DNA of 64,000 bases from an uncultured Bdellovibrionales bacterium. GTDB taxonomy: Bacteria; Bdellovibrionota_G; JALEGL01; JAGRMV01. The stretch is from positions 33,176 through 97,175 of the forward strand of contig CAZCBX010000010.1 in NCBI GenBank assembly GCA_964497185.1, written 5' to 3'. This document shows, piece by piece, positions 8,332 through 61,261 of this stretch. The notes under the pieces were generated by a model. That model made no database searches. It was not told the origin of the DNA and worked only from the letters and a program-made list of their open reading frames with translations. Both the position numbers and the translations under genes were made by a program. Position 1 is the stretch's first letter, and each line of letters begins with the position of its first letter.

Positions 8332-9759
8332 ATGATTCGAATTGAAACCATGCATATTGTTTTTTTATTGATCACAGGAATTTTGAGTCTATTGGTAGGC
8401 CCTCATGCATATGCCTCCACCAGTTCATTGGAACCTGTTTTGGATTTAACCCATCATTGGGCTGGCATTACAGCGTTGGTTTTGTTTGTGCTGTCCTATA
8501 TTTTCGTGATTCTGGAGGAAAAGCTGCACTTAAGAAAATGCAAGCCAGTGCTGCTGGCTGCGGGTTTAATTTGGCTTTGTATTTCAGTGGCCTATAGACA
8601 TCACGACACCCTTGCCATTGGGGAGGCCATTCGACATTACTTGCTTGAGTTTGCGGAGCTTTTTTTCTTTCTTTTGGTGGCGATGACTTACATCAACGCC
8701 ATGATTTATAAAGGCGTATTCATTGAAATGAAAAAAAGACTTGTTCGCAAACGGTTGAGCTATCGCCAGTTGTTTTGGTTTACAGGGATACTGGCTTTTT
8801 TACTGTCGCCCATTGCAGATAACTTAACCACGGCCCTGATTTTTTGTGCGGTGGTCATGGCTTTGGGCAAAGACCAACCCAAGTTCATTGGTTTGGCATG
8901 CATCAACATTGTGGTGGCATCCAATGCCGGAGGCGCGTTTAGCCCCTTTGGGGACATTACCACATTGATGGTGTGGCAACGCGGGGTGGTCAATTTTTGG
9001 GAATTTTTCCATCTGTTTCTACCCTCGGTGGTTAATTTTGCAGTGCCCGCTGCGGTGATGCAATTTTTTGTTCCCCGTGGCATGCCATCGGACATTGAAA
9101 AGCAGAGCAGCGGCATGCGAAAAGGTGGGGGCGCAATTGTATTTCTATTTTTGTTTACCGTGGCCAGCACAGTGGCGCTGCACACCTTTTTTCATATCCC
9201 ACCGGTGTTTGGCATGATGATGGGCTTGTCTTATCTCAAGATTTACGATTACTTCTTGCAACAGCGCAATCGACGCTGGACAAGGTTTATGCGCAAAGTG
9301 TTGCAAACGCCCGATGACCCTCATAAATTCAGCGTCTTTGACAGCGTGGCCCAAGCAGAGTGGGATACGCTTTTCTTTTTCTACGGTGTGATTATGGCCG
9401 TCGGTGGTCTTGGGTTTATTGGCTACCTCGAATGGACCTCAGTATTTATGTATCAGCAACTGGGCCCCACCACCGCCAACATCTTGGTGGGCTTTTTGTC
9501 GGCCCTCATAGATAACATACCGGTCATGTTTGCTGTGCTGGCCATGCGGCCCGAAATGTCCCACGAACAATGGCTGCTGGTCACTTTAACCGCCGGTGTT
9601 GGGGGCAGCATGCTCTCAGTCGGCTCGGCCGCTGGCGTGGCTCTAATGGGCCAAGCCAGAGGACACTATACATTCATGAAACACCTACGCTGGACCCCCA
9701 TCATCGCATTGGGCTTTGGCGCCAGCATCTGCACCCATATTTGGATCAATGGGCTTTAG
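8332..9759 (+). CDS. NhaD-type Na+/H+ antiporter (ArsB/NhaD permease superfamily)
   Basis: 475 aa polytopic protein with signal-like N-terminus, repeated GG/AG helix-breaking motifs, and size and pattern consistent with NhaD. Confidence 0.5.
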   Translation: MIRIETMHIVFLLITGILSLLVGPHAYASTSSLEPVLDLTHHWAGITALVLFVLSYIFVILEEKLHLRKCKPVLLAAGLIWLCISVAYRHHDTLAIGEAIRHYLLEFAELFFFLLVAMTYINAMIYKGVFIEMKKRLVRKRLSYRQLFWFTGILAFLLSPIADNLTTALIFCAVVMALGKDQPKFIGLACINIVVASNAGGAFSPFGDITTLMVWQRGVVNFWEFFHLFLPSVVNFAVPAAVMQFFVPRGMPSDIEKQSSGMRKGGGAIVFLFLFTVASTVALHTFFHIPPVFGMMMGLSYLKIYDYFLQQRNRRWTRFMRKVLQTPDDPHKFSVFDSVAQAEWDTLFFFYGVIMAVGGLGFIGYLEWTSVFMYQQLGPTTANILVGFLSALIDNIPVMFAVLAMRPEMSHEQWLLVTLTAGVGGSMLSVGSAAGVALMGQARGHYTFMKHLRWTPIIALGFGASICTHIWINGL

Positions 9760-13617: not shown

Positions 13618-13719
13618 GGTGGGCTCCTTTGTTACTTATACTATCTCAAAAACAACATTCATAGACAAATAGAAAGTTTATATGAGACATATAGATTTTG
13701 ATTATGTATAATGGTGCCC

Positions 13720-14640
13720 ATGCAACAACTTAATTATCATCATTTGCAATATTTTTGGATGGTGGCCAAGGAGGGCAGTATTACCCAGGCCGCTAAAAAA
13801 CTCCGAGTGTCTCAACCCACGGTGAGTGCGCAGCTGGCGCAACTAGAGGAGAATATGCAAGTGGTTTTGTTTACCAAGGCAGGTCGAGGCCTTCGTTTAA
13901 CCGACACCGGTAAGGTGGTTTTTCGCTATGCGCAGGACATTTTCTCCACGGGGGAAGATTTGCTGCATGCCATGGAGAGTGCAGGCTCCACCAGTGCCAG
14001 AAGGTTGCACATTGGGGTGGCGATGGTCATCCCCAAACTGGTGGCCAGTCGGCTGATTGAAATTACGCTTCAAAGTAGTCCAGCGGTGGTCCCGATATGC
14101 ACAGAAGACAACCTAGAGCAGCTTTTGGCAAAACTTTCGGTGCACGAATTGGACGTTGTGTTGTCCGACTCGCCGATTCCACCTTTGGTAAACGTAAAAG
14201 CGTACAATCATCGCTTGGGGCAATCGGGCATTTCATTTTGTGTGGCCAAAAGTCAGGCCAAAAAATACAAAGATTTCCCATCTTGTTTGGATCATCAACC
14301 CATGTTGATGCCCACCGAAGGTACCATGCTGCGTCGATCCCTTGAGCAGTGGTTCGAAAATCATCAAGTTCAGCCGCACATCAAAGCTGAATTTCAAGAT
14401 ACAGCGCTTTTGAAAGTTTTTGGACAACAGGGCCATGGCGTATTTCCCGTTCCTACGCTGATCGATCAGCAAGTTGAAAAGCAATACAATGTTAAAGTGA
14501 TCGGCCGCACAAAGGAAATTATGGAAACCTATTATGCCATTTCTGTGGAGCGAAAGATCTCTCATCCAGCTGTTCAGAAAATTGCCAAGCAGGCCATTGC
14601 TCGCATATTCGACCCCAAAGGAGGAAGCAGTAAGAAATAA
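13720..14640 (+). CDS. LysR-family transcriptional regulator, NhaR-like
   Basis: QQLNYHHLQYFWMVAKEGSITQAA parallels E. coli NhaR INYNHLYYFWHVYKEGSVVGAA, and ETYYAISVERKISHPAVQKI parallels EYHAIFAERMIQHPAVQRI. A TATAAT box lies at 13700-13705. Confidence 0.8.
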   Translation: MQQLNYHHLQYFWMVAKEGSITQAAKKLRVSQPTVSAQLAQLEENMQVVLFTKAGRGLRLTDTGKVVFRYAQDIFSTGEDLLHAMESAGSTSARRLHIGVAMVIPKLVASRLIEITLQSSPAVVPICTEDNLEQLLAKLSVHELDVVLSDSPIPPLVNVKAYNHRLGQSGISFCVAKSQAKKYKDFPSCLDHQPMLMPTEGTMLRRSLEQWFENHQVQPHIKAEFQDTALLKVFGQQGHGVFPVPTLIDQQVEKQYNVKVIGRTKEIMETYYAISVERKISHPAVQKIAKQAIARIFDPKGGSSKK

Positions 14641-14720
14641 GTCCATCTCTTTTTTTGTTTTACCGGCACGGTTTCATTTGACCCTAGCCGGTTATTGACC
14701 CAAAATGGAGGGGCCACTGG

Positions 14721-16418
14721 TTGACTATGAAAAAATCCAATCCCAATACGCTAATTTTCGAAAAGCTGTATCGCGCCGTTGTGGCGATGTTAAGCCCTGA
14801 ACATTCATTTTACATTGTGGCGATTATCTATGGTGCGGCCGTAAGCTTGCTGACGCTGGCCATCCCCATTTCGGTACAGGCATTGGTGAACACCATTGCT
14901 TTTGGTGTTTTGTTTCAACCCCTCATGATTTTAAGCTTGGTGCTGTTTTTGCTGCTTGTATTTTCTGGGGTCCTCAATGCCTTGCAAACATATGTTATAG
15001 AGATTTTTCAGCGTAAATTTTATGCGCGCACCACTTCTGACATTGCCATTCGTCTGATCAATGCAGACATCCATGCCCTGGCAAAGCGCAACGGGGTGGA
15101 ATTGGTGAACCGGTATTTTGACGTAATGACAGTGCAAAAAAGTGTTACGCATCTTTTGACCGGCGGTGTATCGGTGCTGCTGCAATCGATGGTGGGGCTG
15201 TTGCTTTTGGCTTTTTATCATCCATACTTTTTGGCATTTGATGTGTTGCTTTTGATTTTGCTTTGGTTGGTGTGGGCGCTATACGGCAAGAAAGCCATTT
15301 TATCCGCCATCAAGGAATCGACGGCCAAGTATGAAACAGCCAGCTGGCTAGAGGATATAGCCCACGCCAATCTCTTTCTGCAGTCCACGGCCAAAAAAGA
15401 GTTTGCGCTAAACCAGGCCGATGATCGGATTTTAAATTACTTGTCCCATCGTAAGTTTCATTTTCGACGGGTCTTTAAGCAGATCATCATGCTGTTGGTG
15501 ATTTACGCATTGATGAGTGCGTTGATTTTGGGCTTGGGGGGGTTTTTAGTAGCCGACGGGCAATTAACCCTGGGCCAGCTGGTGGCGGCAGAGTTGATTA
15601 TCACAGTCATATTGGCCAGTTTTGCCAAGTCTGGCAAATACCTTGAGTCTTTTTATGATTTGGTGGCAGCGGTCGATAAATTGTCCGCTTTTTATGAGCT
15701 GCCCACCATCGAAAGCTCAGACAGTAAGCTGCAGTTAAAAGGGCACGATCTTGTGCTTGAAAATGTGGAGGTGCGCGTCAACCAACGGTTGCTTCACCTT
15801 GATCTCCAACTGGATGAAGGCAAAAATTATGTGGTTTACTCCTCTTTCTATTCCTCTACCTGCATGATGATGGATTTGCTCAATGGTCATTTGCAGAAGT
15901 ACACGGGAAGTCTTCGTCTTGGTGACATTGACTATCAAGATGTGGCCATGCTGGATATTCGAGACCAAGTGCGTTTGGTGGATCGACCTGTTTTTTTTCG
16001 TGGCTCCATTGCCGACAACCTAACGCATGGCATGCAAGATATCGAACGGTCCAAAATCATCCATGCTTTGGAAACAGTGGATATTGACATTCACAGTGAT
16101 TATTTGCCTGAAGGGCTTGATACGCAGATTTTTGCTTCAGGATATCCACTATGGCCCTCGCAATTGATTCGATTGGACATTGCCCGAGCCCTATTGTCGG
16201 AGCCCAAAGTGTTAATGTTGTCGCCCGCTTTTGATCAAATAGAAGATCAACGAAAAGTGAAAATTTTGCTGGCGCTAAGGCGCATGTCCACCACCGTCAT
16301 TTTATTCAGTCATTTGGAACAACAGGTGGTGGATTTTGATCAATACCTTTGGCTCAAGCGTGAACAGCTTCTCCTATTCGATACCGCTCAAGCATTTCAG
16401 GAGAGCAAGGCATCATGA
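14721..16418 (+). CDS. ABC exporter-like protein (type I exporter TMD) with a degenerate nucleotide-binding domain
   Basis: Six-TM HlyB/MsbA-like transmembrane domain. In the NBD, Walker A is replaced by KNYVVYSSFYSSTCMMMD, the LSGGQ signature by YPLWPSQ, and Walker B LILDE by LMLSPAFD. The H-loop His is retained (FSHLEQ). No C39 peptidase domain. Confidence 0.7.
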   Translation: MTMKKSNPNTLIFEKLYRAVVAMLSPEHSFYIVAIIYGAAVSLLTLAIPISVQALVNTIAFGVLFQPLMILSLVLFLLLVFSGVLNALQTYVIEIFQRKFYARTTSDIAIRLINADIHALAKRNGVELVNRYFDVMTVQKSVTHLLTGGVSVLLQSMVGLLLLAFYHPYFLAFDVLLLILLWLVWALYGKKAILSAIKESTAKYETASWLEDIAHANLFLQSTAKKEFALNQADDRILNYLSHRKFHFRRVFKQIIMLLVIYALMSALILGLGGFLVADGQLTLGQLVAAELIITVILASFAKSGKYLESFYDLVAAVDKLSAFYELPTIESSDSKLQLKGHDLVLENVEVRVNQRLLHLDLQLDEGKNYVVYSSFYSSTCMMMDLLNGHLQKYTGSLRLGDIDYQDVAMLDIRDQVRLVDRPVFFRGSIADNLTHGMQDIERSKIIHALETVDIDIHSDYLPEGLDTQIFASGYPLWPSQLIRLDIARALLSEPKVLMLSPAFDQIEDQRKVKILLALRRMSTTVILFSHLEQQVVDFDQYLWLKREQLLLFDTAQAFQESKAS

Positions 16419-17500
16419 TCACGCCCGAAAATCACCCAAAGGATGAAAAGTTTTTTCAATCCCTTTTGCTGTACCATCCCCCGCGATGGATGCGGATATT
16501 ATCCAACCTTTTGATTGGCGCGCTGGTGCTTATGGTTTTAATGCTAAGCTTAACCCCTTGGCAGCAAACCTCGCGCGGCAAAGGTCAAGTCATTGCATTT
16601 GATCCCAATGATCGATTGCAAAATATTAACTCGCCTGTGCCTGGACGGGTAGAGGAGTGGTTTGTTCAAGATGGCTCAGATGTGAAAAAGGGAGATCCCA
16701 TTGTTGAGATCATTGACAATGACCCCCAGTACATGGAGCGACTCACTTTGGAACGAGACGCCGCTTTTCGTGAATACGATGCAGCAAAGTCTGCCAGTGA
16801 AACAGCCTTGCTTAATTACCGTCGGCAGAAGGATTTGTTCGACAAGGGATTAAGCTCTAGGCGTGAATTTGAAAAATCAAACATCGAATATAAAAAACTT
16901 CTGTCCACTGAAGCCCAAGCTGCTGCTGGACTAGCCAAAGCTGAAGTCAAGTTGTCACGTCAACAAAACCAGCTCGTAACCGCGCCCCGTGATGGAACAA
17001 TTTTAAGAGTGCTTCATGGCGCTGGCTCTATCATGGTCAAAGAAGGGGATGTGCTGGCTTCCTTTGTGCCCAAAACGGCCAAACCGGCGGTGGAAATTTA
17101 TATTCGAGGCAATGATTTGCCGCTGGTCTATCCTGGCCGTCACGTTCGTTTGCAGTTTGAAGGGTGGCCCGCTGTGCAGTTTAGTGGTTGGCCTTCGGTT
17201 GCGGTCGGCACGTTTGGCGGGGTGGTGTCGGTGGTGGATTCTTCAGCAAGTCACGGTGGTAAGTTTCGTGTCATTGTGGTGCCAGAAGAAGGAGAGTCGT
17301 GGCCAGACAATCAATTTTTAAGACAGGGCACACGGGTGTATGGGTGGGTATTGCTCAACACTGTCAAATTGGGATACGAGCTGTGGCGACAATTTAACGG
17401 TTTTCCCCCAGCCATGGAAGAGGCCCCCGATCCCAAACAACAACCATTTCAGCAACCCACCTTTGAGCCCAAAGCTTCAAAAGCAGAGGAATCCTCATGA
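16415..17500 (+). CDS. HlyD-family periplasmic adaptor (membrane fusion protein)
   Basis: N-terminal TM anchor, lipoyl-like GRVEEWFVQDGSDVKKGDPIVEI motif, coiled-coil middle; 4-nt overlap with the upstream ABC gene. Confidence 0.8.
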   Translation: MITPENHPKDEKFFQSLLLYHPPRWMRILSNLLIGALVLMVLMLSLTPWQQTSRGKGQVIAFDPNDRLQNINSPVPGRVEEWFVQDGSDVKKGDPIVEIIDNDPQYMERLTLERDAAFREYDAAKSASETALLNYRRQKDLFDKGLSSRREFEKSNIEYKKLLSTEAQAAAGLAKAEVKLSRQQNQLVTAPRDGTILRVLHGAGSIMVKEGDVLASFVPKTAKPAVEIYIRGNDLPLVYPGRHVRLQFEGWPAVQFSGWPSVAVGTFGGVVSVVDSSASHGGKFRVIVVPEEGESWPDNQFLRQGTRVYGWVLLNTVKLGYELWRQFNGFPPAMEEAPDPKQQPFQQPTFEPKASKAEESS

Positions 17501-18894
17501 AGCCAATGGCATGGCTGATCATGGTCTGCTTCATCACGGTTGGGGTTCAAGCAGCTGAAAAAAAAGTGGTGTCTGAAGAGGCGGTGATCCAATCGATGTC
17601 CAGACATTATCCAGCTGTCATGGCAGAACTGGAAAATGTAGAGGCCGCCAGTCAAGCAGCCATTGAGGCTCAAGGGGCTTTCGATTTTACGCTGCGATCC
17701 AAGGCGGATATTCGAACCAAAGGCTTTTATGATGGTCGATCGGTCGGTTTGCAGGCTGTCAAACCTTTTGCTCCTCTCAATGGTGAAGTGTACGGCGGCT
17801 ATCGGGTGTCGGATGGGCAGTATCCTTCGTATGAAGGAAAAATAGATACATTAAGTCGAGGGGAATGGAACGCTGGGTTGAATCTATCTTTGTGGCGAAA
17901 TCTTGGCATCGATTCAAGGCGATTGAATCAATGGAACGCCCGTTTGGATGTGCAGGGCGCTGAGTACGATTTGGCACAAACCAAACTGGAAGTGTTTCGC
18001 AAGGGTTTAGAAGCCTATTGGCGGTGGGTGACGGCCACCAAAGTTTTAAGTGTGTATCAGCGATTGTTGACCATTGCGCAAGCACGCAATGAGGCCTTGA
18101 GCCAGCGGGTGCGTAAGGGAGATCTGGCGGATATTTATTTAGAGGAAAATCAGCAGTACATTGTTCGACGAAAAGCGCAGCTGCTGCAAGCTGAAAGAGA
18201 TTGGCAAACACAAACATTTGAGCTTTCTTTGTACCTTCGCGATGACAATGGGCAACCCATGATTTTAACCCATGAAGCTGTGCCGTCTCAGCGAGATGAG
18301 TTTTTTAAAATTACCATCGATCAAATGCAAGAAGATGTTGCCTATGCATTGAATCATCATCCGTTGGTACAGGGTGTAGAAGTCGAAATGGAAAAGCGAA
18401 ACAACGTAGCACGTTTGGGGCAAAATTTACTTCAACCCAAAGTGGATTTATCGGTTGAGGTGTCCAATGATGTAGGCCAGGGCCCCAATGAGCTGGAGCC
18501 CATGGAAAATCGTGCAATGTTGCAAGTTGAAATCCCCATCGAAAGACGAAAAGGGCGTGGTAAAAGAGACCAAGCCCGAGCGGAGATTCGTGCCCTTGAA
18601 TGGCAAAAGCAGTTGTTGATGGATCAAATCAAGGCAGAATTTGCCACTTTGGTTCAAGAAATGAATTTAATGGCCGAAACCATTGAACTGACAGAAAAAG
18701 AAATGCAGCTCGCCATGGTTTTGGAAGACGCTGAGCAAGAACGGTTTGATAGAGGCGCGAGTGACTTTTTTGTGGTCAATCTTCGAGAACAAAACACCGC
18801 CAGTGCGCAGATTGGCAATTTGAAAGCCAAATTGGAATATGAAAAAACCTGGGCACAGTATCGGGCGTTATCGATGTTGTGGCTGCGACCTTGA
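17497..18894 (+). CDS. TolC-family outer membrane efflux protein
   Basis: 465 aa with signal peptide and two TolC-like repeat halves with coiled-coil segments; 4-nt overlap with the HlyD gene. Confidence 0.75.
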   Translation: MKPMAWLIMVCFITVGVQAAEKKVVSEEAVIQSMSRHYPAVMAELENVEAASQAAIEAQGAFDFTLRSKADIRTKGFYDGRSVGLQAVKPFAPLNGEVYGGYRVSDGQYPSYEGKIDTLSRGEWNAGLNLSLWRNLGIDSRRLNQWNARLDVQGAEYDLAQTKLEVFRKGLEAYWRWVTATKVLSVYQRLLTIAQARNEALSQRVRKGDLADIYLEENQQYIVRRKAQLLQAERDWQTQTFELSLYLRDDNGQPMILTHEAVPSQRDEFFKITIDQMQEDVAYALNHHPLVQGVEVEMEKRNNVARLGQNLLQPKVDLSVEVSNDVGQGPNELEPMENRAMLQVEIPIERRKGRGKRDQARAEIRALEWQKQLLMDQIKAEFATLVQEMNLMAETIELTEKEMQLAMVLEDAEQERFDRGASDFFVVNLREQNTASAQIGNLKAKLEYEKTWAQYRALSMLWLRP

Positions 18895-18951
18895 TATTTC
18901 ACTTTATTGACAAAATATACAGATTTTAAGAAATTTGGTAGGCTCCAGCCT

Positions 18952-19488
18952 ATGATGAACTTACGAAACATATTGCTATTGTTAATAACTGTATCTACAT
19001 CCACATTTGCTTTTGCAGACAAAACAGTTTGTAAAGCCAGTGGTGTAGAGCGTCACATTGAAGTGGTCTCCCTTGCGGATGGCAAAGACGTGCCCTGTGA
19101 GGTGCGCTATACCAAGCAAGGAGATACCAAAACCCTATGGACAGCTGAAAATGATGCGTCTTATTGCCTGACCAAAGCCAAGGGCTTGGCTGAAAAGCTC
19201 AGTGCTGCTGGTTGGGATTGCGGCATGTCTGCAAGTCAAACGCAAGAAGCTGCGCCAATGGCCCAAAAGGCAGAGGCAGATGACATGGCCAAAACAGTGA
19301 CCGATGAGCCTGCGGGTCAGAAAAAGCCATGCTGCGAAGGCAAAAAAGAAACATGCAAAGCATGCGAAAAATCAGACCGAGCTTATAAGAAAAAAATGAG
19401 AAAAAAAGCCCGTGCTGAAAAACGAGCTGAAAAACGCCGTGCCAAGGAAATGTCTGACACAGAAGACACCAAAGAGGAGATGCAATAG
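18952..19488 (+). CDS. secreted hypothetical protein with a Cys cluster and a Lys/Glu-rich tail
   Basis: Signal peptide MMNLRNILLLLITVSTSTFAFA; CCEGKKETCKACEK motif; C-terminus KKKMRKKARAEKRAEKRRAKE. Confidence 0.5.
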   Translation: MMNLRNILLLLITVSTSTFAFADKTVCKASGVERHIEVVSLADGKDVPCEVRYTKQGDTKTLWTAENDASYCLTKAKGLAEKLSAAGWDCGMSASQTQEAAPMAQKAEADDMAKTVTDEPAGQKKPCCEGKKETCKACEKSDRAYKKKMRKKARAEKRAEKRRAKEMSDTEDTKEEMQ

Positions 19489-19513
19489 AATTTTTTGCCA
19501 GATTTTGAGCAAA

Positions 19514-19557
19514 CAAAAAAGGGTTCATGAGCATTGGCTCATGAACCCTTTTTTTTA
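19514..19557. terminator. bidirectional Rho-independent terminator
   Basis: aaaaaaa-gggttcatgagc-attg-gctcatgaaccc-ttttttttt: a 12-bp perfect stem flanked by an A-run and a T-run, between convergent genes. Confidence 0.8.
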
Positions 19558-20943
19558 TTCAGGCTGACAGCTGCCGTTGATGCATCGGATTTCAATGCTT
19601 GTGGGGTCGGATGGGTCCCGGTTATCTACATCATTGATCGCTCGAAGGGTAAACACAATCGAGTGATCATCCGATTGAGTGCCAAAGTAACTCAGATGAA
19701 TGAAAAAGTCATCCTTATGCGTAACGGGCGCAAAAACGGCAGTTGAGATGGGAGCACTGGTTTCGTTGGTCAAGTTGTCCACCCCATGAATGTCGATGAG
19801 AAACATATCCACCTGGTCAATTTCACCAAAGGTATACGTCCAATCGAGATCCACAAACAATGTACCGCTGCCATTGACATAGTAATAATCAAAATGGAAG
19901 TTGCCTGGGGTGTCCAATTGATTGTTAATTGGGGTGACAGGTCCTGCTTCTGGCGTGGTAAACACATCGCCGTTGTCATAGGTGATGACCAAACGGTATT
20001 TGTATGATGAGCTGCTGCTAACCAGGGTGTCCATGTAGGACGTGGTGGTGGTTGCCAAAGGAAGGCCTCGGTCCATCCACTGTCCCTCATTGGCTTTTAT
20101 TTGCAATTGAACCTCATCCACCAAACCAAGGCTGCCTTGTGTCCAGTCCCACGTTACTTCGATGGCGCTGGGTTGAGCGGTCAAAGCAAGATTGGTGGGT
20201 GTGGGAAAATCCTCATCCAACAATGGTGAGACAGGCCCTACAGGAGATGTTTGATAGGTAGTGCCGTCGGTGTAAGTTAGCAGAAGGCGGTAGGTATAAT
20301 TTTGTCCGACTTGAACCAGGGTATCGGTGAAAGTTTGATTGTTGGTGTTGTATTGAGGCACGCCATAGTTTGCCCACGGTCCTGTGCCAACTTTGCGTTG
20401 AATGCGGAAAAAACTTAAAAGACCCGCATTGCCTGTGGTCCAATTCCAGGAGAGGTTGATGGTACCTTGTCCTGCTTGTGCGGCTAAACCATAAGCGACT
20501 ATGGCGTCTTCAGCGACATCACTGTCGAGCGTGGTCACCAAAATGCCATCGGTGTAGGAGGAAGCTTGGTCTGTGGATCTTGCTTGAATGCGAATTTCAT
20601 ATTCTTGGCTGGGGTTGAGGTTGGTGAGTTCAAATTGTACGGTTGTTGCGTCAACAGTGTCCCAATGCTCATACGCGCCATCGGCTTGATCTGAAGTTTT
20701 GCCCTCAATGCGAATGTCAATTTCTTCGGCCTGGTCGGGCTGATCCCATTGGATGGTGATGGAAGTGCTCGATGAAGCATAACCCACCAAGCCATTGGGA
20801 ACCCCTAGCTCCTTGGGGTCGGGGTTGCCGCTGCCACTGGTGGTGGCATTTTCGTCCTGTAGTGTCATGGGCACATTTCGACAAGCCTGTGTGCCAAACA
20901 ACACGATGGAAAACATAAGAAAGGTGGTGATGGTCTTTTTCAT
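19555..20943 (-). CDS. secreted protein with tandem fibronectin type III-like domains
   Basis: Signal peptide MKKTITTFLMFSIVLFG; repeated Fn3-like units (ITIQWDQP...YEIRIQARS, EVTWDWTQG...YKYRLVI). Confidence 0.55.
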   Translation of the reverse strand: MKKTITTFLMFSIVLFGTQACRNVPMTLQDENATTSGSGNPDPKELGVPNGLVGYASSSTSITIQWDQPDQAEEIDIRIEGKTSDQADGAYEHWDTVDATTVQFELTNLNPSQEYEIRIQARSTDQASSYTDGILVTTLDSDVAEDAIVAYGLAAQAGQGTINLSWNWTTGNAGLLSFFRIQRKVGTGPWANYGVPQYNTNNQTFTDTLVQVGQNYTYRLLLTYTDGTTYQTSPVGPVSPLLDEDFPTPTNLALTAQPSAIEVTWDWTQGSLGLVDEVQLQIKANEGQWMDRGLPLATTTTSYMDTLVSSSSSYKYRLVITYDNGDVFTTPEAGPVTPINNQLDTPGNFHFDYYYVNGSGTLFVDLDWTYTFGEIDQVDMFLIDIHGVDNLTNETSAPISTAVFAPVTHKDDFFIHLSYFGTQSDDHSIVFTLRAINDVDNRDPSDPTSIEIRCINGSCQPE

Positions 20944-21118
20944 GCTGATATAAAGAGCAATAGTTGTGCCAACGTGGTTACTTTATAAGTATTTGAATTT
21001 ATTGGATTATATTTATTGAAACCTGCTTATTTTTTGCACAATCATGCAGCAGGGATGTCCAGCCCCTCCAAGGGCCAAAAGGGATGAAATCACAGCGCAA
21101 AAAAGGTAGAGAGAAACC

Positions 21119-21631
21119 ATGCCCATTGTAGAAGATGTCATTAAACCCAATTTGCCCCTTTTGATCTGTGGGTCTGCGCTGGGCAATGTATCGGCTCAGA
21201 AAAAAGCTTACTATGCGCACCCCCAAAACCGATTTTGGAAAACGCTTTATGAAGTAGGGCTGACCCCTCACATCATTGCGCCTCAAAACTATGGCACCTT
21301 GTTGAAGTACGGCATCGGCTTAACCGATTTGTGCAAAGAAGAATCTGGACTGGATTCTCAATTGTCCAAACAAGCCTATGATGTACCTCGCTTAGCAAAC
21401 CTCATTGAACAATACACGCCTGGCATGCTTGTATTTAGTGCGCTGGCGCCGGCACGTGCATTCATGCGGGGGCACTTTGGCGTGGCAAAACAACGTGTAT
21501 CCACCGGCCTTCAACCCCAAAGCCTGACCCATACAAAGATTTTTATTTGCACCTCTACATCGCCGCTTTATCCGAACCAAAAGAGAACGCTGACTCTGTG
21601 GCGTGAGGTAGCGCGTTTGATACGCGCTTGA
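21119..21631 (+). CDS. mug: G/U mismatch-specific uracil-DNA glycosylase (Mug/TDG family)
   Basis: PNLPLLICGSALG, AHPQNRFWKTLYEVGLT and LLKYGIGLTDL closely parallel E. coli Mug (GLRVVFCGINPG, AHPANRFWKVIYQAGFT, LLDYRCGVTKL). Confidence 0.8.
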   Translation: MPIVEDVIKPNLPLLICGSALGNVSAQKKAYYAHPQNRFWKTLYEVGLTPHIIAPQNYGTLLKYGIGLTDLCKEESGLDSQLSKQAYDVPRLANLIEQYTPGMLVFSALAPARAFMRGHFGVAKQRVSTGLQPQSLTHTKIFICTSTSPLYPNQKRTLTLWREVARLIRA

Positions 21632-21712
21632 ATAAAAATTGCACTTCTTGAGTGCTTGCGTTACTACTTTGTTTTTTATTTACTCAAATTCATTGAAGGG
21701 GCTATTTTTACA

Positions 21713-22153
21713 GTGAATTTTCAAATCCATCGGTACCCACTGTTGGTTCAAGAGCATCATTTGGATTCATTTGGTCACATGAACAATGCCACCTATTTGC
21801 AAATTTTAGAACAAGCCCGCTGGGATATGATTACTCAGAGGGGCTATGGCTACAAAGAAATTCAAGCCACCGGTTTGGGGCCAACCATTTTAGAGATTCA
21901 TATGAAATTTTTAAAAGAGCTGCATCTTCGTGATGAAGTTACCATTGAAACCCAAGCCTTGTCGTACAACAAAAAAATTGGCTACGTGCGGCAGCAAATT
22001 AACCATGCATCGCGTGGACTCTGTTTCGAAGCAACACTAACGTTTGGTTTGTTTGATATCCATAAAAGAAAATTGGTTACAGCCACATCACAGTGGCTCA
22101 AAGCGTTGGGCATTGATCCCAAAGATTATGCTGGGCAGGAAAATCAGTCATGA
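21713..22153 (+). CDS. acyl-CoA thioesterase, 4HBT/YbgC-like
   Basis: Hotdog-fold motifs (DSFGHMNNATYLQILEQARWDMI); start uncertain (GTG 21713 or TTG 21656). Confidence 0.6.
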   Translation: MNFQIHRYPLLVQEHHLDSFGHMNNATYLQILEQARWDMITQRGYGYKEIQATGLGPTILEIHMKFLKELHLRDEVTIETQALSYNKKIGYVRQQINHASRGLCFEATLTFGLFDIHKRKLVTATSQWLKALGIDPKDYAGQENQS

Positions 22154-23910
22154 ACGAAAAGCCGGCACTAACGCGACTGATTCGTTATGCCAAAGACGAT
22201 CGAAAAAATGCCATTTGGGCTTCCATTTATTCATTTGCCAACAAAGTCTTTGACATTGCACCGGAGATTTTAATTGGTTTTGCCATTGATGTGGTGGTGT
22301 CCAAACAAAATTCATTTGTGGCCAGGATGGGCATTGAAGACCCCTGGCATCAAGTCATTGCGCTGGGCGTACTGACATTGGTGATCTGGGTGTGTGAGTC
22401 GCTTTTTGAATACTTGCATCTGATCTCGTGGCGTAACCTTGCGCAAAACATTCAGCATAAGCTTCGCACGGATGTGTATAGCCATGTACAAAATTTGGAC
22501 ATGGCTTACTTTGAAGATCAAAGTTCAGGCAATCTGGTATCGGTGCTCAATGACGACGTGAATCAACTGGAGCGTTTTTTGGATGGGGGCGCCAATGATT
22601 TTATTCAAACATTAACCGCTGTGGTTTTGGTGGGCGCGGTTTTTATATTCATATCGCCCACCATTGCATGGGTGGCTTTTATGCCCATTCCACTGGTGAT
22701 TGTGGGTGCTTTTTACTTTCAAAAAAGAGCGGTGCCCATGTATGCCCAAGTACGGGAGAAAGTAGGGCTTTTGGCCTCGCGTTTAAACAACAACATAGCG
22801 GGTATTTTAAGCATTAAAAGTTTTACACGCGAAGCCCAACAGGCCCAATTGCTGCGTGATGAAAGTTTGGCCTACGTACAAGCCAACCACAAAGCCATTG
22901 CAGTGAGCTCAGCATTTACGCCCATCATTCGAATGGCCGTGTTGGCGGGCTTTTTGGCGACATTTTTATTGGGTGGGTGGAAAGTGCTGCAAGGGGATTT
23001 GCGCGTGGGGATGTATGGCGTCTTGGTTTTTTTAACGCAGCGACTTCTTTGGCCACTGACGCGCCTGGCCACCACGGTAGATTTATACGAGCGGGCCATG
23101 GCATCCACACGGCGAATTTTGGATTTAAAACAAGTGCCCATTGAAATTGTATCGGGGCATTTTAAACCCGATAAACTCAAAGGCACGTTTGTGCTTAAAA
23201 ACGTTGATTTTAAATACCAAACGGGGGGCCCCGTACTCAAAGATATCTCTCTGCATATCCCTGCCAAAAAAACTGTGGCCTTTGTAGGCGCAACAGGTTC
23301 AGGCAAGAGCACGCTGATCAAACTGCTTTCTCGTTATTACGAGCCAACCTCGGGCGATGTGTGGTTGGATGCCCGACCGCTTTCGGATTACGATTTGCAA
23401 AGCTTGCGACAGCGCATTGGCTTGGTAAGTCAAGATACGTATTTGTTTCACGGCAGCGTAAAAGAAAATTTGCTATTTGGTCAGCTGGAGGCATCGGATG
23501 AGCAATTGATCGAGGCGGCGACCATGGCCGAAGCCCATGACTTTATTCAGGCCTTGCCCGAAGGGTATGACACGATCATTGGCGAACGCGGGCAAAAATT
23601 ATCGGGTGGTCAACGTCAGCGATTGTCCATTGCACGGGCCATTGTCAAAAACCCCGATGTTTTAATTCTGGATGAAGCCACTTCGGCGGTCGACAACGAA
23701 ACCGAGGCAGCCATTCAGCGCGCCATGATCCACATTGCCAAAAACCGAACCACCATCATGATCGCCCATCGACTGTCCACCGTGGTGCAAGCCGATCAAA
23801 TTTATGTTTTGGAACAGGGCCGTATTGTTCAAGAAGGCAAGCACGCGCAGCTGCTTTCGCAAGAAGGCCCCTATCGCCAGCTATGGCAAGTACAAACCGG
23901 CCAGCGATGA
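22150..23910 (+). CDS. ABC transporter ATP-binding/permease protein (MsbA-like exporter) with canonical motifs
   Basis: Six-TM domain plus NBD carrying Walker A GATGSGKST, signature LSGGQRQR, Walker B LILDEATSAVD, and H-loop IAHRL. Confidence 0.85.
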   Translation: MNEKPALTRLIRYAKDDRKNAIWASIYSFANKVFDIAPEILIGFAIDVVVSKQNSFVARMGIEDPWHQVIALGVLTLVIWVCESLFEYLHLISWRNLAQNIQHKLRTDVYSHVQNLDMAYFEDQSSGNLVSVLNDDVNQLERFLDGGANDFIQTLTAVVLVGAVFIFISPTIAWVAFMPIPLVIVGAFYFQKRAVPMYAQVREKVGLLASRLNNNIAGILSIKSFTREAQQAQLLRDESLAYVQANHKAIAVSSAFTPIIRMAVLAGFLATFLLGGWKVLQGDLRVGMYGVLVFLTQRLLWPLTRLATTVDLYERAMASTRRILDLKQVPIEIVSGHFKPDKLKGTFVLKNVDFKYQTGGPVLKDISLHIPAKKTVAFVGATGSGKSTLIKLLSRYYEPTSGDVWLDARPLSDYDLQSLRQRIGLVSQDTYLFHGSVKENLLFGQLEASDEQLIEAATMAEAHDFIQALPEGYDTIIGERGQKLSGGQRQRLSIARAIVKNPDVLILDEATSAVDNETEAAIQRAMIHIAKNRTTIMIAHRLSTVVQADQIYVLEQGRIVQEGKHAQLLSQEGPYRQLWQVQTGQR

Positions 23911-24368
23911 AAGCAGTCCATTTGAACCACAGCGCGAAAGGGTATGCAGGGGCTGTTTTGGGTGGCTTATGCTTAACTGCCATGCTTTATCTCAATGGCA
24001 CCTTGGCCCAATATATTACCTCTAGCGTTGCCTCATTGGTTGTTCATGGCGTAGGGACAGCGGCTGCGGCATTGTTTTTAATGATGTTTCGACCCATGCG
24101 GCCCACCACAGTTCATAAAGCACCGCTATGGTCTTACGCAGGAGGAATATTGGGAGCCATCATGGTGGTGGTTTCCAATTATACGTTTAACAGTCGGCTT
24201 GGCATCACAGGCACCTTTGTGCTGATGCTGGCGGGGCAAACGGCTGTGAGTTTGTGGATTGACCAACGGGGATTGATGGGCATGCCTCAGCGCAAAGTGG
24301 ATCGCGTAGACGTTATACAAATTTTTCTGGTTCTTTTGGGGTGCGCCATGGTGATTTATGCCAAATGA
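23907..24368 (+). CDS. DMT-superfamily membrane protein, DUF606 (YdcZ-like), copy 1
   Basis: ~150 aa, four to five TM helices; paired with a paralogue downstream; start codon overlaps the ABC stop. Confidence 0.5.
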   Translation: MKAVHLNHSAKGYAGAVLGGLCLTAMLYLNGTLAQYITSSVASLVVHGVGTAAAALFLMMFRPMRPTTVHKAPLWSYAGGILGAIMVVVSNYTFNSRLGITGTFVLMLAGQTAVSLWIDQRGLMGMPQRKVDRVDVIQIFLVLLGCAMVIYAK

Positions 24369-24816
24369 ATACCTGCTGTTTGTTTTGACTGCTGTGGCTT
24401 TGATCAACGGTGGCAACATTGTTTTTAATCGCATACTCAACGCACGACTGGCCATGCATGTGGGCGCCATGCGATCTTCCTATTGGAATCATTTGGTGGG
24501 GTTACTGTTTATGGTGGTGTACGTTGGCTTTTTTCCAGCCAAAGAAATAACCGGACAGGATTGGGCTTCTGTGCCTTGGCACCTTTGGTTGGGGGGCGTG
24601 GTCGGCGTGGGTTTTGTATGGTTGATCAACCGGGTCATTTTGCTTCTGGGTGCAGTGCAAACCATGCTGGTGCTCTTGGTGAGTCAAATGATTTTTGGTT
24701 TGGTGGCCGATGTGCTGTTGGGCAAAGTGCGATCGTTGGGATGGGCTACGGCAGGCGTGGTTGTGCTTTTGATGGGCATGGCGCTGCGCGTGCGCTGGAA
24801 GAAAAAAGTATATTAG
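24358..24816 (+). CDS. DMT-superfamily membrane protein, DUF606 (YdcZ-like), copy 2
   Basis: 152 aa with similar hydropathy to copy 1; 11-nt overlap with the upstream gene. Confidence 0.5.
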   Translation: MPNEYLLFVLTAVALINGGNIVFNRILNARLAMHVGAMRSSYWNHLVGLLFMVVYVGFFPAKEITGQDWASVPWHLWLGGVVGVGFVWLINRVILLLGAVQTMLVLLVSQMIFGLVADVLLGKVRSLGWATAGVVVLLMGMALRVRWKKKVY

Positions 24817-27351: not shown

Positions 27352-27485
27352 CTTTGGGCTTGCCCCAGAAAAGCTCCACGAACTCCATGACGCGCCCTCC
27401 TGTCGAAGGTATTCTGAGTTGGTTGAGGGGTTTTCTTCGGCCAGGGTATCCCTTTTGTCAGACACATTCCGCTTTTCTGGGGCAA
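27352..27485. repeat. perfect 23-bp inverted repeat pair separated by 88 bp
   Basis: ctttgggcttgccccagaaaagc (27352-27374) is the exact reverse complement of gcttttctggggcaagcccaaag (27463-27485). Confidence 0.8.
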
Positions 27486-59317: not shown

Positions 59318-61261
59318 ATGTTGGCCATTGAAAATCTGACCAAGCGGTTTGGTCCTCAATTGTTGTTCCAGGGAGCTTCTTTTTCGTTGGGACAGCAAGA
59401 GCGTATTGGCATTGTAGGCCCAAACGGGGCGGGAAAATCAACATTTTTTAAAATGTTAACGGGCGACGAAGACGCGGACGGTGGACAGATCCACATTCCC
59501 AATCAGTACACCATGATTTTGATGAAACAAGAATGGACGCCCAAAGAAAACGATTCCGTCCTCACTGCAGCGCTGCGCGAGTTTGACCCTTGGTTTCAAG
59601 CCCGACACCATCTATTGCAACTGACCCAAGATTTAACCGATGATCCCGAAACGCTCGCGGCTTATCAAGCTGCTGAGACGGCCTTTTTATCCTACGGCGG
59701 GTATCAAGTTGAATACGAAATGAAAGAAATTTTATTTGGCCTGGGCTTTGATGAAGAAAAAATGGCCATGAAGGCCACCGATCTTAGCGGCGGCTGGCGG
59801 ATGCGCTGTTATTTGGCGGGTCTTTTGGTGCAAAAAGCCGACTTGATGCTTTTGGATGAGCCCACCAACCATTTGGATATTTCGTCGGTGGTTTGGTTTG
59901 AAAAGTTTTTACAAACGTACCCATACTCTTACATGATGATCAGTCACGACCGTCGATTGATTCAAAAAACGGCCAAAAAAATATTGGAATTTGCCCCTCC
60001 CAAGCTAACACTCTGGCCCGGTGGTCTCCATAAATATGAGGCCAACAAAGAAGTGCGCATGGAACAAGTTCAAAAAGAGATCATTAGCAAACAAAGAGAG
60101 ATCGATAAATTAAAAGACTTTGCACGACGCTTTGGCGCCAAAGCCACCAAAGCCCGGCAGGCACAAAGCAAACTCAAAAGCGCTGAGTCCATTGAAAGTG
60201 ACATGGCTGAACTTGTGCAAGCCATGCCCATGGAAGCCAAAAGACAGAGTCAGTTTTCGCTTGCGCTGAATCGACGCCAGCCCAAAGTGTGCATCGAAAT
60301 CGAAGAAGCACAATTTGGTTACGAACCCAGCAACCCGCTGTTTTCCATTGACCGCTGTTGGATTGAATCGGGTCAAAAAATTGGGGTCATTGGAGAAAAT
60401 GGTGTGGGCAAGTCGACCTTTTTAAAAACCTGTGCCCAGGAACTCAAGGCACTCAGTGGTAAAATCCGACCCCACTCATCGTGTAAAATCTCTCTTTTTG
60501 CACAGCACCGAATGGAAGAACTGCCCCTGAGTCAAAAAGCCATTGATTACTTGGTGCGTGAAAGCACCAATGAGTCCATCACACAGATTCGGGCCATCGC
60601 GGCCAGCCTTGGTTTAAACGAACACGATTTGGACAAGCCTTTAGAAGTCATGTCGGGTGGAGAAAAAGCCAGGGTGAGTTTAAGCCGCATTCTGCTTCAA
60701 AAACCCGATATTCTCCTGCTCGATGAACCAACCAACCATCTTGACATGGAAGCTTGCGATGCCTTGGTGCAAGGTTTAAAAACGTACACTGGCACCGTGC
60801 TGGTGATTTCCCACAACCGGGATTTTTTGGATGCGCTGGTGGATCACATTTATTGGATTGGTGAGGGAAGGGTGGACGTGCACATTGGCAACTATTCTGA
60901 CTACGCAGAAAAAGCACTGGCAACCGCCAAGGCCCATCAGCCCACACCCCAGCTATCAACCAACACATCAAAAACGCGAAAATCAAAAGAAGAAAAGCGC
61001 CTGGCGGCACAGGCCCGCCAAGCCAAATCGGATCAGCTTAAAGACTTAAAAAAAGAATTGGCCCAGTTGGAAAAGAACATGGACGAATTTGAACAAAGCC
61101 TTCGAGAGATGGATGCCTATTTGGTGGATCCCGCCAATATGCAAAAACCAGAATTCAGTCAAACGCTCAAAGAGCGAGCACGCATGGAAGACAAAAAAGA
61201 CTTGGCTGAGAAAAAGTGGCTTGAAATACAAACCACGATGGAAGCCATCGGCACCGATTGA
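59318..61261 (+). CDS. ABC-F family ATPase (tandem ABC domains, Uup/YheS-like)
   Basis: Two NBDs (GPNGAGKST / GENGVGKST; LSGGWRMR / MSGGEKAR), an inter-domain linker, and a C-terminal coiled coil. Confidence 0.85.
   Translation: MLAIENLTKRFGPQLLFQGASFSLGQQERIGIVGPNGAGKSTFFKMLTGDEDADGGQIHIPNQYTMILMKQEWTPKENDSVLTAALREFDPWFQARHHLLQLTQDLTDDPETLAAYQAAETAFLSYGGYQVEYEMKEILFGLGFDEEKMAMKATDLSGGWRMRCYLAGLLVQKADLMLLDEPTNHLDISSVVWFEKFLQTYPYSYMMISHDRRLIQKTAKKILEFAPPKLTLWPGGLHKYEANKEVRMEQVQKEIISKQREIDKLKDFARRFGAKATKARQAQSKLKSAESIESDMAELVQAMPMEAKRQSQFSLALNRRQPKVCIEIEEAQFGYEPSNPLFSIDRCWIESGQKIGVIGENGVGKSTFLKTCAQELKALSGKIRPHSSCKISLFAQHRMEELPLSQKAIDYLVRESTNESITQIRAIAASLGLNEHDLDKPLEVMSGGEKARVSLSRILLQKPDILLLDEPTNHLDMEACDALVQGLKTYTGTVLVISHNRDFLDALVDHIYWIGEGRVDVHIGNYSDYAEKALATAKAHQPTPQLSTNTSKTRKSKEEKRLAAQARQAKSDQLKDLKKELAQLEKNMDEFEQSLREMDAYLVDPANMQKPEFSQTLKERARMEDKKDLAEKKWLEIQTTMEAIGTD

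Follow-up and report, generated by a model that had tools for sequence, protein, structure and literature searches.

Can a transporter with the fold of an ATP-binding cassette (ABC) exporter keep its place in an intact export operon once the motifs that bind and hydrolyse ATP have been replaced, and if so, what would drive it? This question is raised by four co-directional open reading frames (ORFs) at positions 13711-18894 of a 64,000-nt stretch of DNA (hereafter, the window) from an uncultured Bdellovibrionales bacterium (GCA_964497185.1, contig CAZCBX010000010.1, positions 33,176-97,175). The ORFs encode a LysR-family regulator, an ABC-like protein that we term pseudo-ABC, a periplasmic adaptor and an outer-membrane efflux protein (OEP) of the TolC type. 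An earlier note on this DNA had described the last three genes as joined by 4-nt overlaps, and both the pseudo-ABC/adaptor and the adaptor/OEP junctions are indeed ATGA overlaps. The features on which the argument turns are as follows.

13711-14640, + strand: NhaR-type LysR-family regulator, 309 aa (Pfam HTH_1 and LysR_substrate; NCBIfam NhaR equivalog)
14721-16418, + strand: pseudo-ABC exporter, 565 aa, a six-helix type I ABC exporter membrane domain followed by a degenerate nucleotide-binding domain (NBD)
14778-15695, + strand: transmembrane domain of pseudo-ABC, residues 20-325 (ABC_membrane 33.8 bits; helices in the AlphaFold2 model)
15216-15224, + strand: YHP motif, invariant in the family alignment
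15537-15593, + strand: invariant turn between transmembrane helices (TM) 5 and 6, GGxLVxxGQLTLGQLVAAE, which holds Q286 and E291
15753-16385, + strand: pseudo-NBD, residues 345-555 (ABC_tran below its cutoff; predicted local distance difference test, pLDDT, 85-92)
15834-15869, + strand: Walker A equivalent VYSSFYSSTCMM, residues 372-383, without the glycine-rich loop and without the Lys
16146-16163, + strand: equivalent of the LSGGQ signature, PLWPSQ, residues 476-481
16209-16244, + strand: Walker B and D-loop equivalent VLMLSPAFDQIE, residues 497-508, with Asp changed to Ser, the catalytic Glu changed to Pro and FD conserved
16415-17500, + strand: periplasmic adaptor, 361 aa, with an N-terminal TM anchor, lipoyl domain, alpha-hairpin and beta-barrel
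17497-18894, + strand: TolC-like outer-membrane factor, 465 aa, with a signal peptide (Pfam OEP)

The length of 565 aa assumes a TTG start at 14721; the gene call of the Joint Genome Institute (JGI) uses the ATG at 14727 (563 aa). Pseudo-ABC exceeds the cutoff of the Pfam model for the type I exporter membrane domain (ABC_membrane, 33.8 bits; cutoff 28) and misses the gathering score of ABC_tran (14.3 bits, E=0.064; cutoff 25), against which the window's canonical ABC exporter, encoded at 22150-23910, scores 124 bits. In a scan of NCBIfam no model reaches its own cutoff, and the best-scoring models over the membrane domain are those of type I secretion system (T1SS) as well as peptidase-containing (PCAT) ABC transporters. 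Yet the C-terminal domain aligns end to end with the NBDs of the T1SS, PCAT and MsbA models (~75-105 bits, far under their cutoffs), and the protein aligns through residue ~550 to Protein Data Bank (PDB) chains of ABCB4, BmrA, TM287/288 and PCAT1. An AlphaFold2 model built from a 27-sequence alignment has a mean pLDDT of 77.5, rising to 85-92 over the C-terminal alpha/beta domain, and contains six long membrane helices; Foldseek matches it over its full length to PCAT1, TM287/288, HlyB, TmrAB and MsbA (E ~1e-22 to 1e-19). Because the end-to-end alignments, the AlphaFold2 model and the Foldseek matches agree, the C-terminal domain is best read as an NBD by descent and by predicted fold. A non-NBD domain at this place was considered and is excluded by the model and PDB alignments, AlphaFold2, Foldseek and the ABC_tran scores of a sister clade described below.

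What this domain lacks are the catalytic motifs. Its Walker A columns read SSFYSSTCM in place of the canonical GxxGxGK[ST], a pattern that is also absent from all 108 close homologues. The Q-loop Gln has become Arg, the LSGGQ columns read LWPSQ (family consensus L[WS]xx[QE]), and the LILDE columns of Walker B read LMLSP, with Ser in place of the Asp and Pro in place of the Glu. A His is present in the H-loop equivalent FSHLE (residues 529-533), but it is incidental because this column is mostly Asn across the family (His in 11 of 108). With no Walker A, no signature and no Walker B acidic residues, no homodimer of pseudo-ABC can form a canonical ATP site. The earlier note had anticipated most of this: the motif strings that it quoted are present in the protein at columns aligned to canonical ABC exporters, the motifs are replaced within an NBD fold that is predicted to be kept, and its ATP-dead homodimer stands; the surviving His that it listed is the one point to correct. 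It had also named two outcomes that would undo its reading, namely close homologues with normal motifs and a C-terminal domain unrelated to ABC proteins; neither was found.

The sequence itself is secure. The window matches a 437-kb JGI metagenome contig in which the cassette is identical, and a contig from a second sample, assembled independently from its metagenome, is 100% identical over window positions 15132-23717, pseudo-NBD included. The sole differences between the window and the 437-kb contig fall at 27393-27426 (three substitutions and one 1-nt indel in 34 nt), possibly a variable or error-prone spot.

Far from being an isolated oddity, the protein is a member of a large, ancient family that spans at least five phyla and shows graded NBD degeneration. 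A word-indexed search returned 2,019 relatives, the top 120 of which are 37-54% identical over their full length and come from Halobacteriovorax, Bacteriovoracaceae metagenome-assembled genomes, Erythrobacter and Qipengyuania. When 1.84 billion representatives of 50% identity clusters were searched exhaustively with phmmer, 1,306 had E<=1e-30; among the best 150 of these, 77 are without the Walker A pattern G....GK[ST] and 73 keep it. In source databases the relatives are named "ABC transporter ATP-binding protein/permease", "ABC transporter transmembrane domain-containing protein" or hypothetical. A scan of one genome per species located at least 570 loci, distributed over Bdellovibrionota, Alphaproteobacteria (Erythrobacter, Kordiimonas, Parvularcula and Caulobacterales), Planctomycetota, Acidobacteriota (Bryobacteraceae), Myxococcota and some Gammaproteobacteria. 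Three grades emerged from a motif table of 80 loci.

Clade A, Planctomycetota, Acidobacteriota and some Myxococcota: Walker A GxxGxGK[ST] and the Walker B Asp kept
Clade B, Alphaproteobacteria and allies: Walker A replaced by a new conserved motif, xS.HG[VIL]QRLF; ABC_tran 17.6 bits
Clade C, Bacteriovoracales including the window: no recognisable Walker A, with positions that vary; ABC_tran 14-25 bits

The H-loop His and Q-loop Gln are lost in clade A, where the catalytic position of Walker B is G, E, D or Q and the signature reads PL[ST]xxQ, without its glycines; ABC_tran scores nonetheless lie above the cutoff, at 61-85 bits. Clade B has S, N or T for the Walker B Asp and PLSxxE for the signature, and clade C has lost the Walker B Asp and carries a degenerate signature; the H-loop and Q-loop are lost in both. 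In a neighbour-joining tree rooted on the window's canonical ABC, clades B and C together form a single clade, to which clade A is sister. This topology fits a single ancient loss of the ATP site, but provisionally, since only one outgroup was used and the branches carry no support values. Clade A proteins (loci L022-L078, for example L044:9350-11623 and L025:9404-11641; also P0246-P0378) carry an extra N-terminal ~130-220 aa that has no Pfam match, and a long form without a strict Walker A accounts for 25 of the best 150 representatives.

Throughout the family the pseudo-NBD has a constant length (201-221 aa), and the residues conserved in it are structural ones: G396, G465, T468, G474, P476, A488, P495 and D505. 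Conservation is higher in the membrane domain than in the NBD in all clades (49.7 vs 32.3%, 71.8 vs 55.3% and 60.1 vs 41.7%), the opposite of the pattern in ordinary ABC proteins, in which the NBD is the most conserved part. Between close pairs of clade B, the ratio of nonsynonymous to synonymous substitution rates (dN/dS, or omega; Nei-Gojobori method) is 0.03-0.135 for the pseudo-NBD, about equal to the 0.04-0.17 of the membrane domain; examples are the pairs L081/L026 (dS 0.386, omega 0.084) and L083/L065 (dS 0.498, omega 0.135). Because these ratios are far below 1, the dead domain is being maintained under strong purifying selection, as measured in clade B and carried over to the window's clade.

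In the membrane domain, H167, Q254, Q286 and E291 are 100% conserved in 80 sequences and are specific to the family, the window's canonical ABC having S, P, M and V, respectively, in these columns. E291 and Q286 lie in TM6, Q254 in TM5 and H167 in the YHP motif at the TM3-TM4 turn, and all four fall in hydrophobic segments or at periplasmic turns. An invariant, buried carboxylate together with a histidine is typical of ion-coupled transporters. The parts of pseudo-ABC that are most conserved of all are periplasm-facing turns, those of the YHP motif and of the glycine-rich TM5-TM6 segment listed above.

The partners of pseudo-ABC resemble those of an efflux pump. The adaptor contains the Pfam domains Biotin_lipoyl_2 and HlyD_3, scores 68.9 bits against the NCBIfam model RND_mfp, which is under the cutoff, and reaches only 57.5 bits against type_I_hlyD (TIGR01843; cutoff 208.65), so that it does not classify as a HlyD-type membrane-fusion protein (MFP). 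By sequence, the TriAB fusion, EmrA, MexJ and MacA all outscore HlyD. Its AlphaFold2 model comprises a TM anchor (residues 24-46), a lipoyl domain, a hairpin of two ~40-residue helices, a beta-barrel and a disordered tail, with no membrane-proximal domain; Foldseek ranks MexA, MacA, AcrA, ZneB and EmrA highest, with HlyD outside the first 50 matches. Both kinds of evidence identify the adaptor as a short, TM-anchored, efflux-type MFP, as opposed to a HlyD-type one. The outer-membrane factor matches Pfam OEP with 98.8 bits in two stretches, which places it in the TolC family. An operon of three genes whose adaptor is of the efflux type has the makings of a generic tripartite efflux pump, and no gene for an RTX, C-terminal-signal or GG-leader substrate was found among the ORFs flanking the cassette, which in the window encode proteins with Sec or lipoprotein signal peptides or with unrelated domains. 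Because the adaptor is of the efflux type and no substrate gene lies nearby, the assembly resembles less a machine for protein secretion than a tripartite efflux pump whose membrane domain is T1SS/PCAT-like; the description 'T1SS-like' in the earlier note fits the membrane domain, by scores and by fold, and the TolC-family factor, but neither the adaptor nor the lack of a linked substrate. Adaptor homologues are 56-73% identical (mean column identity 64%), compared with 37-54% for those of pseudo-ABC. Together with the conserved periplasmic turns of pseudo-ABC, this difference suggests a tightly co-evolving periplasmic interface.

Homologous loci also share the gene neighbourhood, a comparison that the earlier note had proposed: the order pseudo-ABC, adaptor, OEP is kept in 78 of 83. 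Contig ends truncate four of the five exceptions, and the fifth (L039) has no adjacent OEP gene. Only three of the 83 (L017, L058 and L073) have a canonical ABC or NBD gene within 10 kb on either side. The three genes thus move together, with no canonical ABC gene linked to them. When all ORFs in the loci were clustered, no gene beyond the three core ones was universally linked; the other clusters were antisense shadows or clade-specific neighbours, which include LysR genes in 16 loci. The window operon likewise contains no second ABC gene and hence lacks the adjacent, competent partner of a heterodimeric ABC exporter. As the earlier note had stated, 22150-23910 encodes the only canonical ABC exporter of the window: 59318-61261 encodes a soluble ABC-F protein in the domain scan, and no further ABC exporter was found among the other large ORFs.

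The regulator that precedes the cassette scores 248.9 bits against the NCBIfam NhaR equivalog NF008284 (cutoff 219). NhaR-type genes that also exceed this cutoff (229-243 bits) occur near the cassette in L044, L045, L047, L069 (Planctomycetota) and L079 (Myxococcota). They are adjacent and divergent in all of these except L045, where the gene lies 3.4 kb upstream on the same strand; a further adjacent, divergent copy in L057 is truncated by the contig end and scores 198 bits. Alphaproteobacterial loci have an OxyR-like LysR gene at that position instead. Because a genome usually has one NhaR-type gene, chance is an unlikely explanation for its repeated adjacency to the cassette in three phyla. 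NhaR genes typically sit beside their targets, as in nhaA-nhaR of Escherichia coli. The window's regulator scores above the equivalog cutoff and likewise lies next to a putative target, which would, however, be the export cassette and not nhaA. In this organism, Na+, alkaline or osmotic stress would probably be the signal under which the regulator controls the operon. A NhaD-type Na+/H+ antiporter is encoded at 8332-9759 (+ strand; NCBIfam NF038006, 548 bits, cutoff 80), ~4 kb upstream of the regulator, with genes of mixed orientation in between. Between the regulator and pseudo-ABC, the following features can be read.

14641-14720, + strand: intergenic region, a weak candidate promoter by sequence reading
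14662-14692: short inverted repeat ACCGGC-N19-GCCGGT, arms of 6 nt, overlapping the promoter-like -35 hexamer
14678-14706, + strand: promoter-like site, weak
14708-14712, + strand: candidate ribosome-binding site GGAGG, weak, by sequence reading

The arms of the inverted repeat are too short to separate from chance, and a promoter and terminator scan of the region gave site counts at or near the shuffle expectation, which makes it uninformative.

How, then, would such a system work? We propose that 14721-18894 encodes an envelope-spanning export system in which an inner-membrane transporter is joined by a TM-anchored adaptor to a TolC-like duct, and that the transporter would be a homodimer with the ABC-exporter fold, its NBD turned into a pseudo-NBD. 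Transport would not be powered by ATP hydrolysis on pseudo-ABC. Rather, the membrane domain would most likely act as a secondary-active exporter coupled to an ion gradient, or as a gated exporter, with Glu291, His167, Gln286 and Gln254 as candidate coupling or gating residues, and the pseudo-NBD would be kept as a clamp for dimerisation in the cytoplasm or as a module for regulation. The efflux type of the adaptor makes a small molecule or an ion a likelier cargo than an unfolded protein. We put the idea of an ion-gradient-coupled or gated homodimeric exporter, with the pseudo-NBD as a dimerisation or regulatory module, at just short of an even chance. For the family as a whole, we tentatively entertain, as possible rather than probable, a joint reading in which the loci represent an ancient, multi-phylum class of tripartite exporters: a full-length ABC exporter would have turned nucleotide-independent and ion-driven or channel-like, its pseudo-NBD retained in a structural or regulatory role and its living intermediates kept. 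The latter would be stages of conversion, first with Walker A and Walker B kept but signature and H-loop lost, and then with everything lost.

Several observations weigh against this proposal. Ion coupling is read from sequence, and helix boundaries and hydropathy, not coordinates, are the basis for how deep in the membrane and how exposed to the pore E291 and H167 are taken to lie. The dN/dS values come from the alphaproteobacterial clade; in the window's clade dS is saturated (nearest relative L004), and the pseudo-NBD is less conserved there than in any other clade, at 32% mean identity. The neighbour-joining tree is rooted on a single outgroup with a long branch and carries no support values, and the search for a partner ABC covered 10 kb on either side of the cassettes. 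On the regulatory side, the earlier note's link to a NhaR-type regulator gains from the identity of the protein and its recurrence in six other loci, but only 7 of 84 loci, counting the window, show the adjacency, and the window's closest relatives lack it; moreover, the NhaD antiporter is a plausible alternative or additional target.

The alternative that survives best, although we regard it as rather unlikely, is that the system does not pump at all but is a channel across the envelope, passive or gated, or else a scaffold with a structural or regulatory role that ties the inner membrane to the outer one, with the pseudo-NBD as a sensor of a ligand or partner. No energy module is evident in the cassette, the adaptor and the periplasm-facing loops are its most conserved parts, CFTR and SUR are precedents for a channel and a regulator with the ABC fold, and the fixation of HG[VIL]QRLF in place of Walker A in clade B hints at a new binding function. 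A ligand for the pseudo-NBD finds no support, however, and the invariant polar or ionisable residues of TM5 and TM6 resemble a transport pathway more than a scaffold; in addition, a duct open across both membranes would be costly without tight gating.

Decidedly unlikely, in our view, is the heterodimer that the earlier note had suggested, in which pseudo-ABC would be the inactive half of a pair with an unlinked canonical ABC protein, possibly the 22150-23910 product, and the partner would supply the energy of ATP binding. A canonical ABCB-type exporter does lie 3.7 kb downstream, and the partner search was confined to the loci. Known heterodimeric ABC exporters are encoded by adjacent gene pairs, whereas relatives of the 22150 gene, or any canonical NBD, are found within 10 kb in just the three loci mentioned, and the 22150 gene belongs to a unit of its own that also holds a thioesterase gene and two DMT genes. 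Heterodimers in which one site is degenerate are common among ABC exporters (PMC7756269), but because the pseudo-NBD is without both Walker A and the signature, pairing it with a canonical partner would leave one composite site dead and the other without a signature, so that no fully canonical site would remain.

A conventional ATP-driven T1SS, whose NBD binds nucleotide through an unrecognised, non-canonical site, is very improbable. That the membrane domain scores best against T1SS/PCAT models and folds like PCAT1 and HlyB, and that the sister clade retains Walker A and the Walker B Asp, would be in keeping with it. The window protein, however, is without the P-loop glycines and Lys, the Walker B acidic residues and the signature; there is no conserved alternative nucleotide site in its clade, because the motif positions vary there; its adaptor is not of the HlyD type; and no RTX or C-terminal-signal substrate gene is nearby. 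Finally, gene decay or an error of sequencing or assembly, for which the missing motifs alone would speak, can be dismissed with near certainty, as can strain-specific decay, given the intact ORF that the earlier note had also stressed, the two identical contigs, the family-wide motif loss and the dN/dS ratios of clade B.

Around the three core genes, gene content differs from clade to clade and gave no hint of a substrate shared by the loci. Erythrobacter-type loci (L010, L013, L016 and ~17 others) have a conserved pair of pyridine-nucleotide-disulfide oxidoreductase genes upstream on the opposite strand, one of them fused to a VTT/DedA membrane domain, and an OxyR-like LysR gene adjoins the cassette in L008, L009, L012 and L014; these neighbours suggest a redox-stress context in Alphaproteobacteria. 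In two Qipengyuania loci (L002/L003, positions 1-21752) the cassette lies inside a Wzx/Wzy-type exopolysaccharide cluster (Wzy_C, Polysacc_synt, Wzz, Poly_export and glycosyltransferases), with a divergent gene upstream for a 987-aa protein that has no Pfam match. The gene order of sphingan clusters, atrD-atrB, differs from that of the cassette. The Qipengyuania cassette may be related to AtrB/AtrD of those clusters (PMC9197254).

Downstream of the cassette in the window, an ORF just 3' of the OEP gene (18907-19488, + strand, 193 aa; the JGI gene call starts at 18952 and gives 178 aa) encodes a small secreted protein with a signal peptide, several Cys pairs (among them CC...C..C) and a tail very rich in Lys, Glu and Arg. 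It has no Pfam or NCBIfam match and does not recur beside the cassette in other loci, and was rejected as a cassette partner on that ground. Convergent with the cassette, 19555-20943 (- strand) encodes a predicted lipoprotein of 462 aa with a lipobox-like N-terminus and fibronectin type III repeats. The canonical ABC gene at 22150-23910 sits in its own tight unit (21656-24816, + strand), preceded with a 4-nt overlap by a 4HBT thioesterase gene and followed by genes for two half-size DMT_YdcZ proteins, a composition that hints at export of an acyl- or thioester-derived product.

The cassette combines features of several known systems. EmrAB-TolC, which is driven by the proton-motive force, likewise has a TM-anchored adaptor without a membrane-proximal domain, a transporter without a large periplasmic domain and a TolC-type duct, and EmrA is among the adaptor's best matches by sequence and fold; however, its inner-membrane component belongs to the major facilitator superfamily (MFS) and does not have the ABC fold, and the EmrA hairpin is much longer. 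MacAB-TolC also joins an ABC-superfamily protein to an efflux-type adaptor and an outer-membrane factor, and MacA is among the adaptor's top fold matches, but MacB has a type VII fold, a large periplasmic domain and an active ATPase. With HlyB-HlyD-TolC and other T1SSs the cassette shares an ABC-fold inner-membrane protein, which matches the fold of HlyB (8dck, 7sgr) and PCAT1, a TM-anchored MFP and a TolC-like factor. It differs from them in that pseudo-ABC has neither ATPase motifs nor a C39 or C39-like N-terminal domain, in the short, efflux-type hairpin of its adaptor, and in having no RTX or C-terminal-signal substrate gene nearby.

The heterodimeric exporters TM287/288, TmrAB and BmrCD show substitutions in the same places, the signature, the H-loop and the catalytic Glu (PMC7756269). 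By its motifs, clade A resembles their 'degenerate site' and could bind ATP while hydrolysing it poorly. Those exporters, however, keep Walker A and pair with an adjacent, competent partner, whereas the cassette has a single ABC gene, both sites of its homodimer would be degenerate, and the window's clade is without even Walker A and the Walker B Asp. Closest in energetics may be SbmA/BacA (SLiPT) and LmrA-MD, ABC-type membrane domains that transport by a proton or ion gradient and not by ATP (PMC8442886, PMC2704374). LmrA and its NBD-less form LmrA-MD perform H+-Na+-Cl- symport linked to salt stress (PMC2704374), a link that fits the NhaR-type regulator beside the cassette. SbmA, however, has lost its NBD entirely and is an importer that is not part of a tripartite system, and LmrA-MD is an engineered truncation; unlike both, the cassette keeps a full-length pseudo-NBD under selection in an exporter-type tripartite operon, and its ion coupling is presumptive.

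Neither a review of tripartite and T1SS machines (PMC8277102) nor one of degenerate sites in type I exporters (PMC7756269) mentions such a system, and no description of a T1SS or efflux ABC protein with a fully degenerate NBD was found in the full-text literature searched, a limited collection. The cassette thus appears to encode an envelope exporter of the tripartite kind in which the ABC-fold engine is left without its ATPase, for which we found no published description. ABC exporters are defined by ATP-driven alternating access; if our reading is true, a natural and widespread lineage with the whole ABC fold, pseudo-NBD and all, but without nucleotide binding would serve as a test of what the ABC membrane domain can do alone, and would bear both on the physiological relevance of the ion-gradient coupling reported for LmrA and MsbA and on the origin of pseudo-enzymes within membrane machines. 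Tripartite systems, now classed as powered by ABC, resistance-nodulation-division (RND) or MFS transporters, would gain a fourth type of energisation, or a type with none. The graded clades offer natural mutants with which to separate the structural from the catalytic role of the NBD, and for about half of the family the annotation "ABC transporter ATP-binding protein/permease" is misleading.

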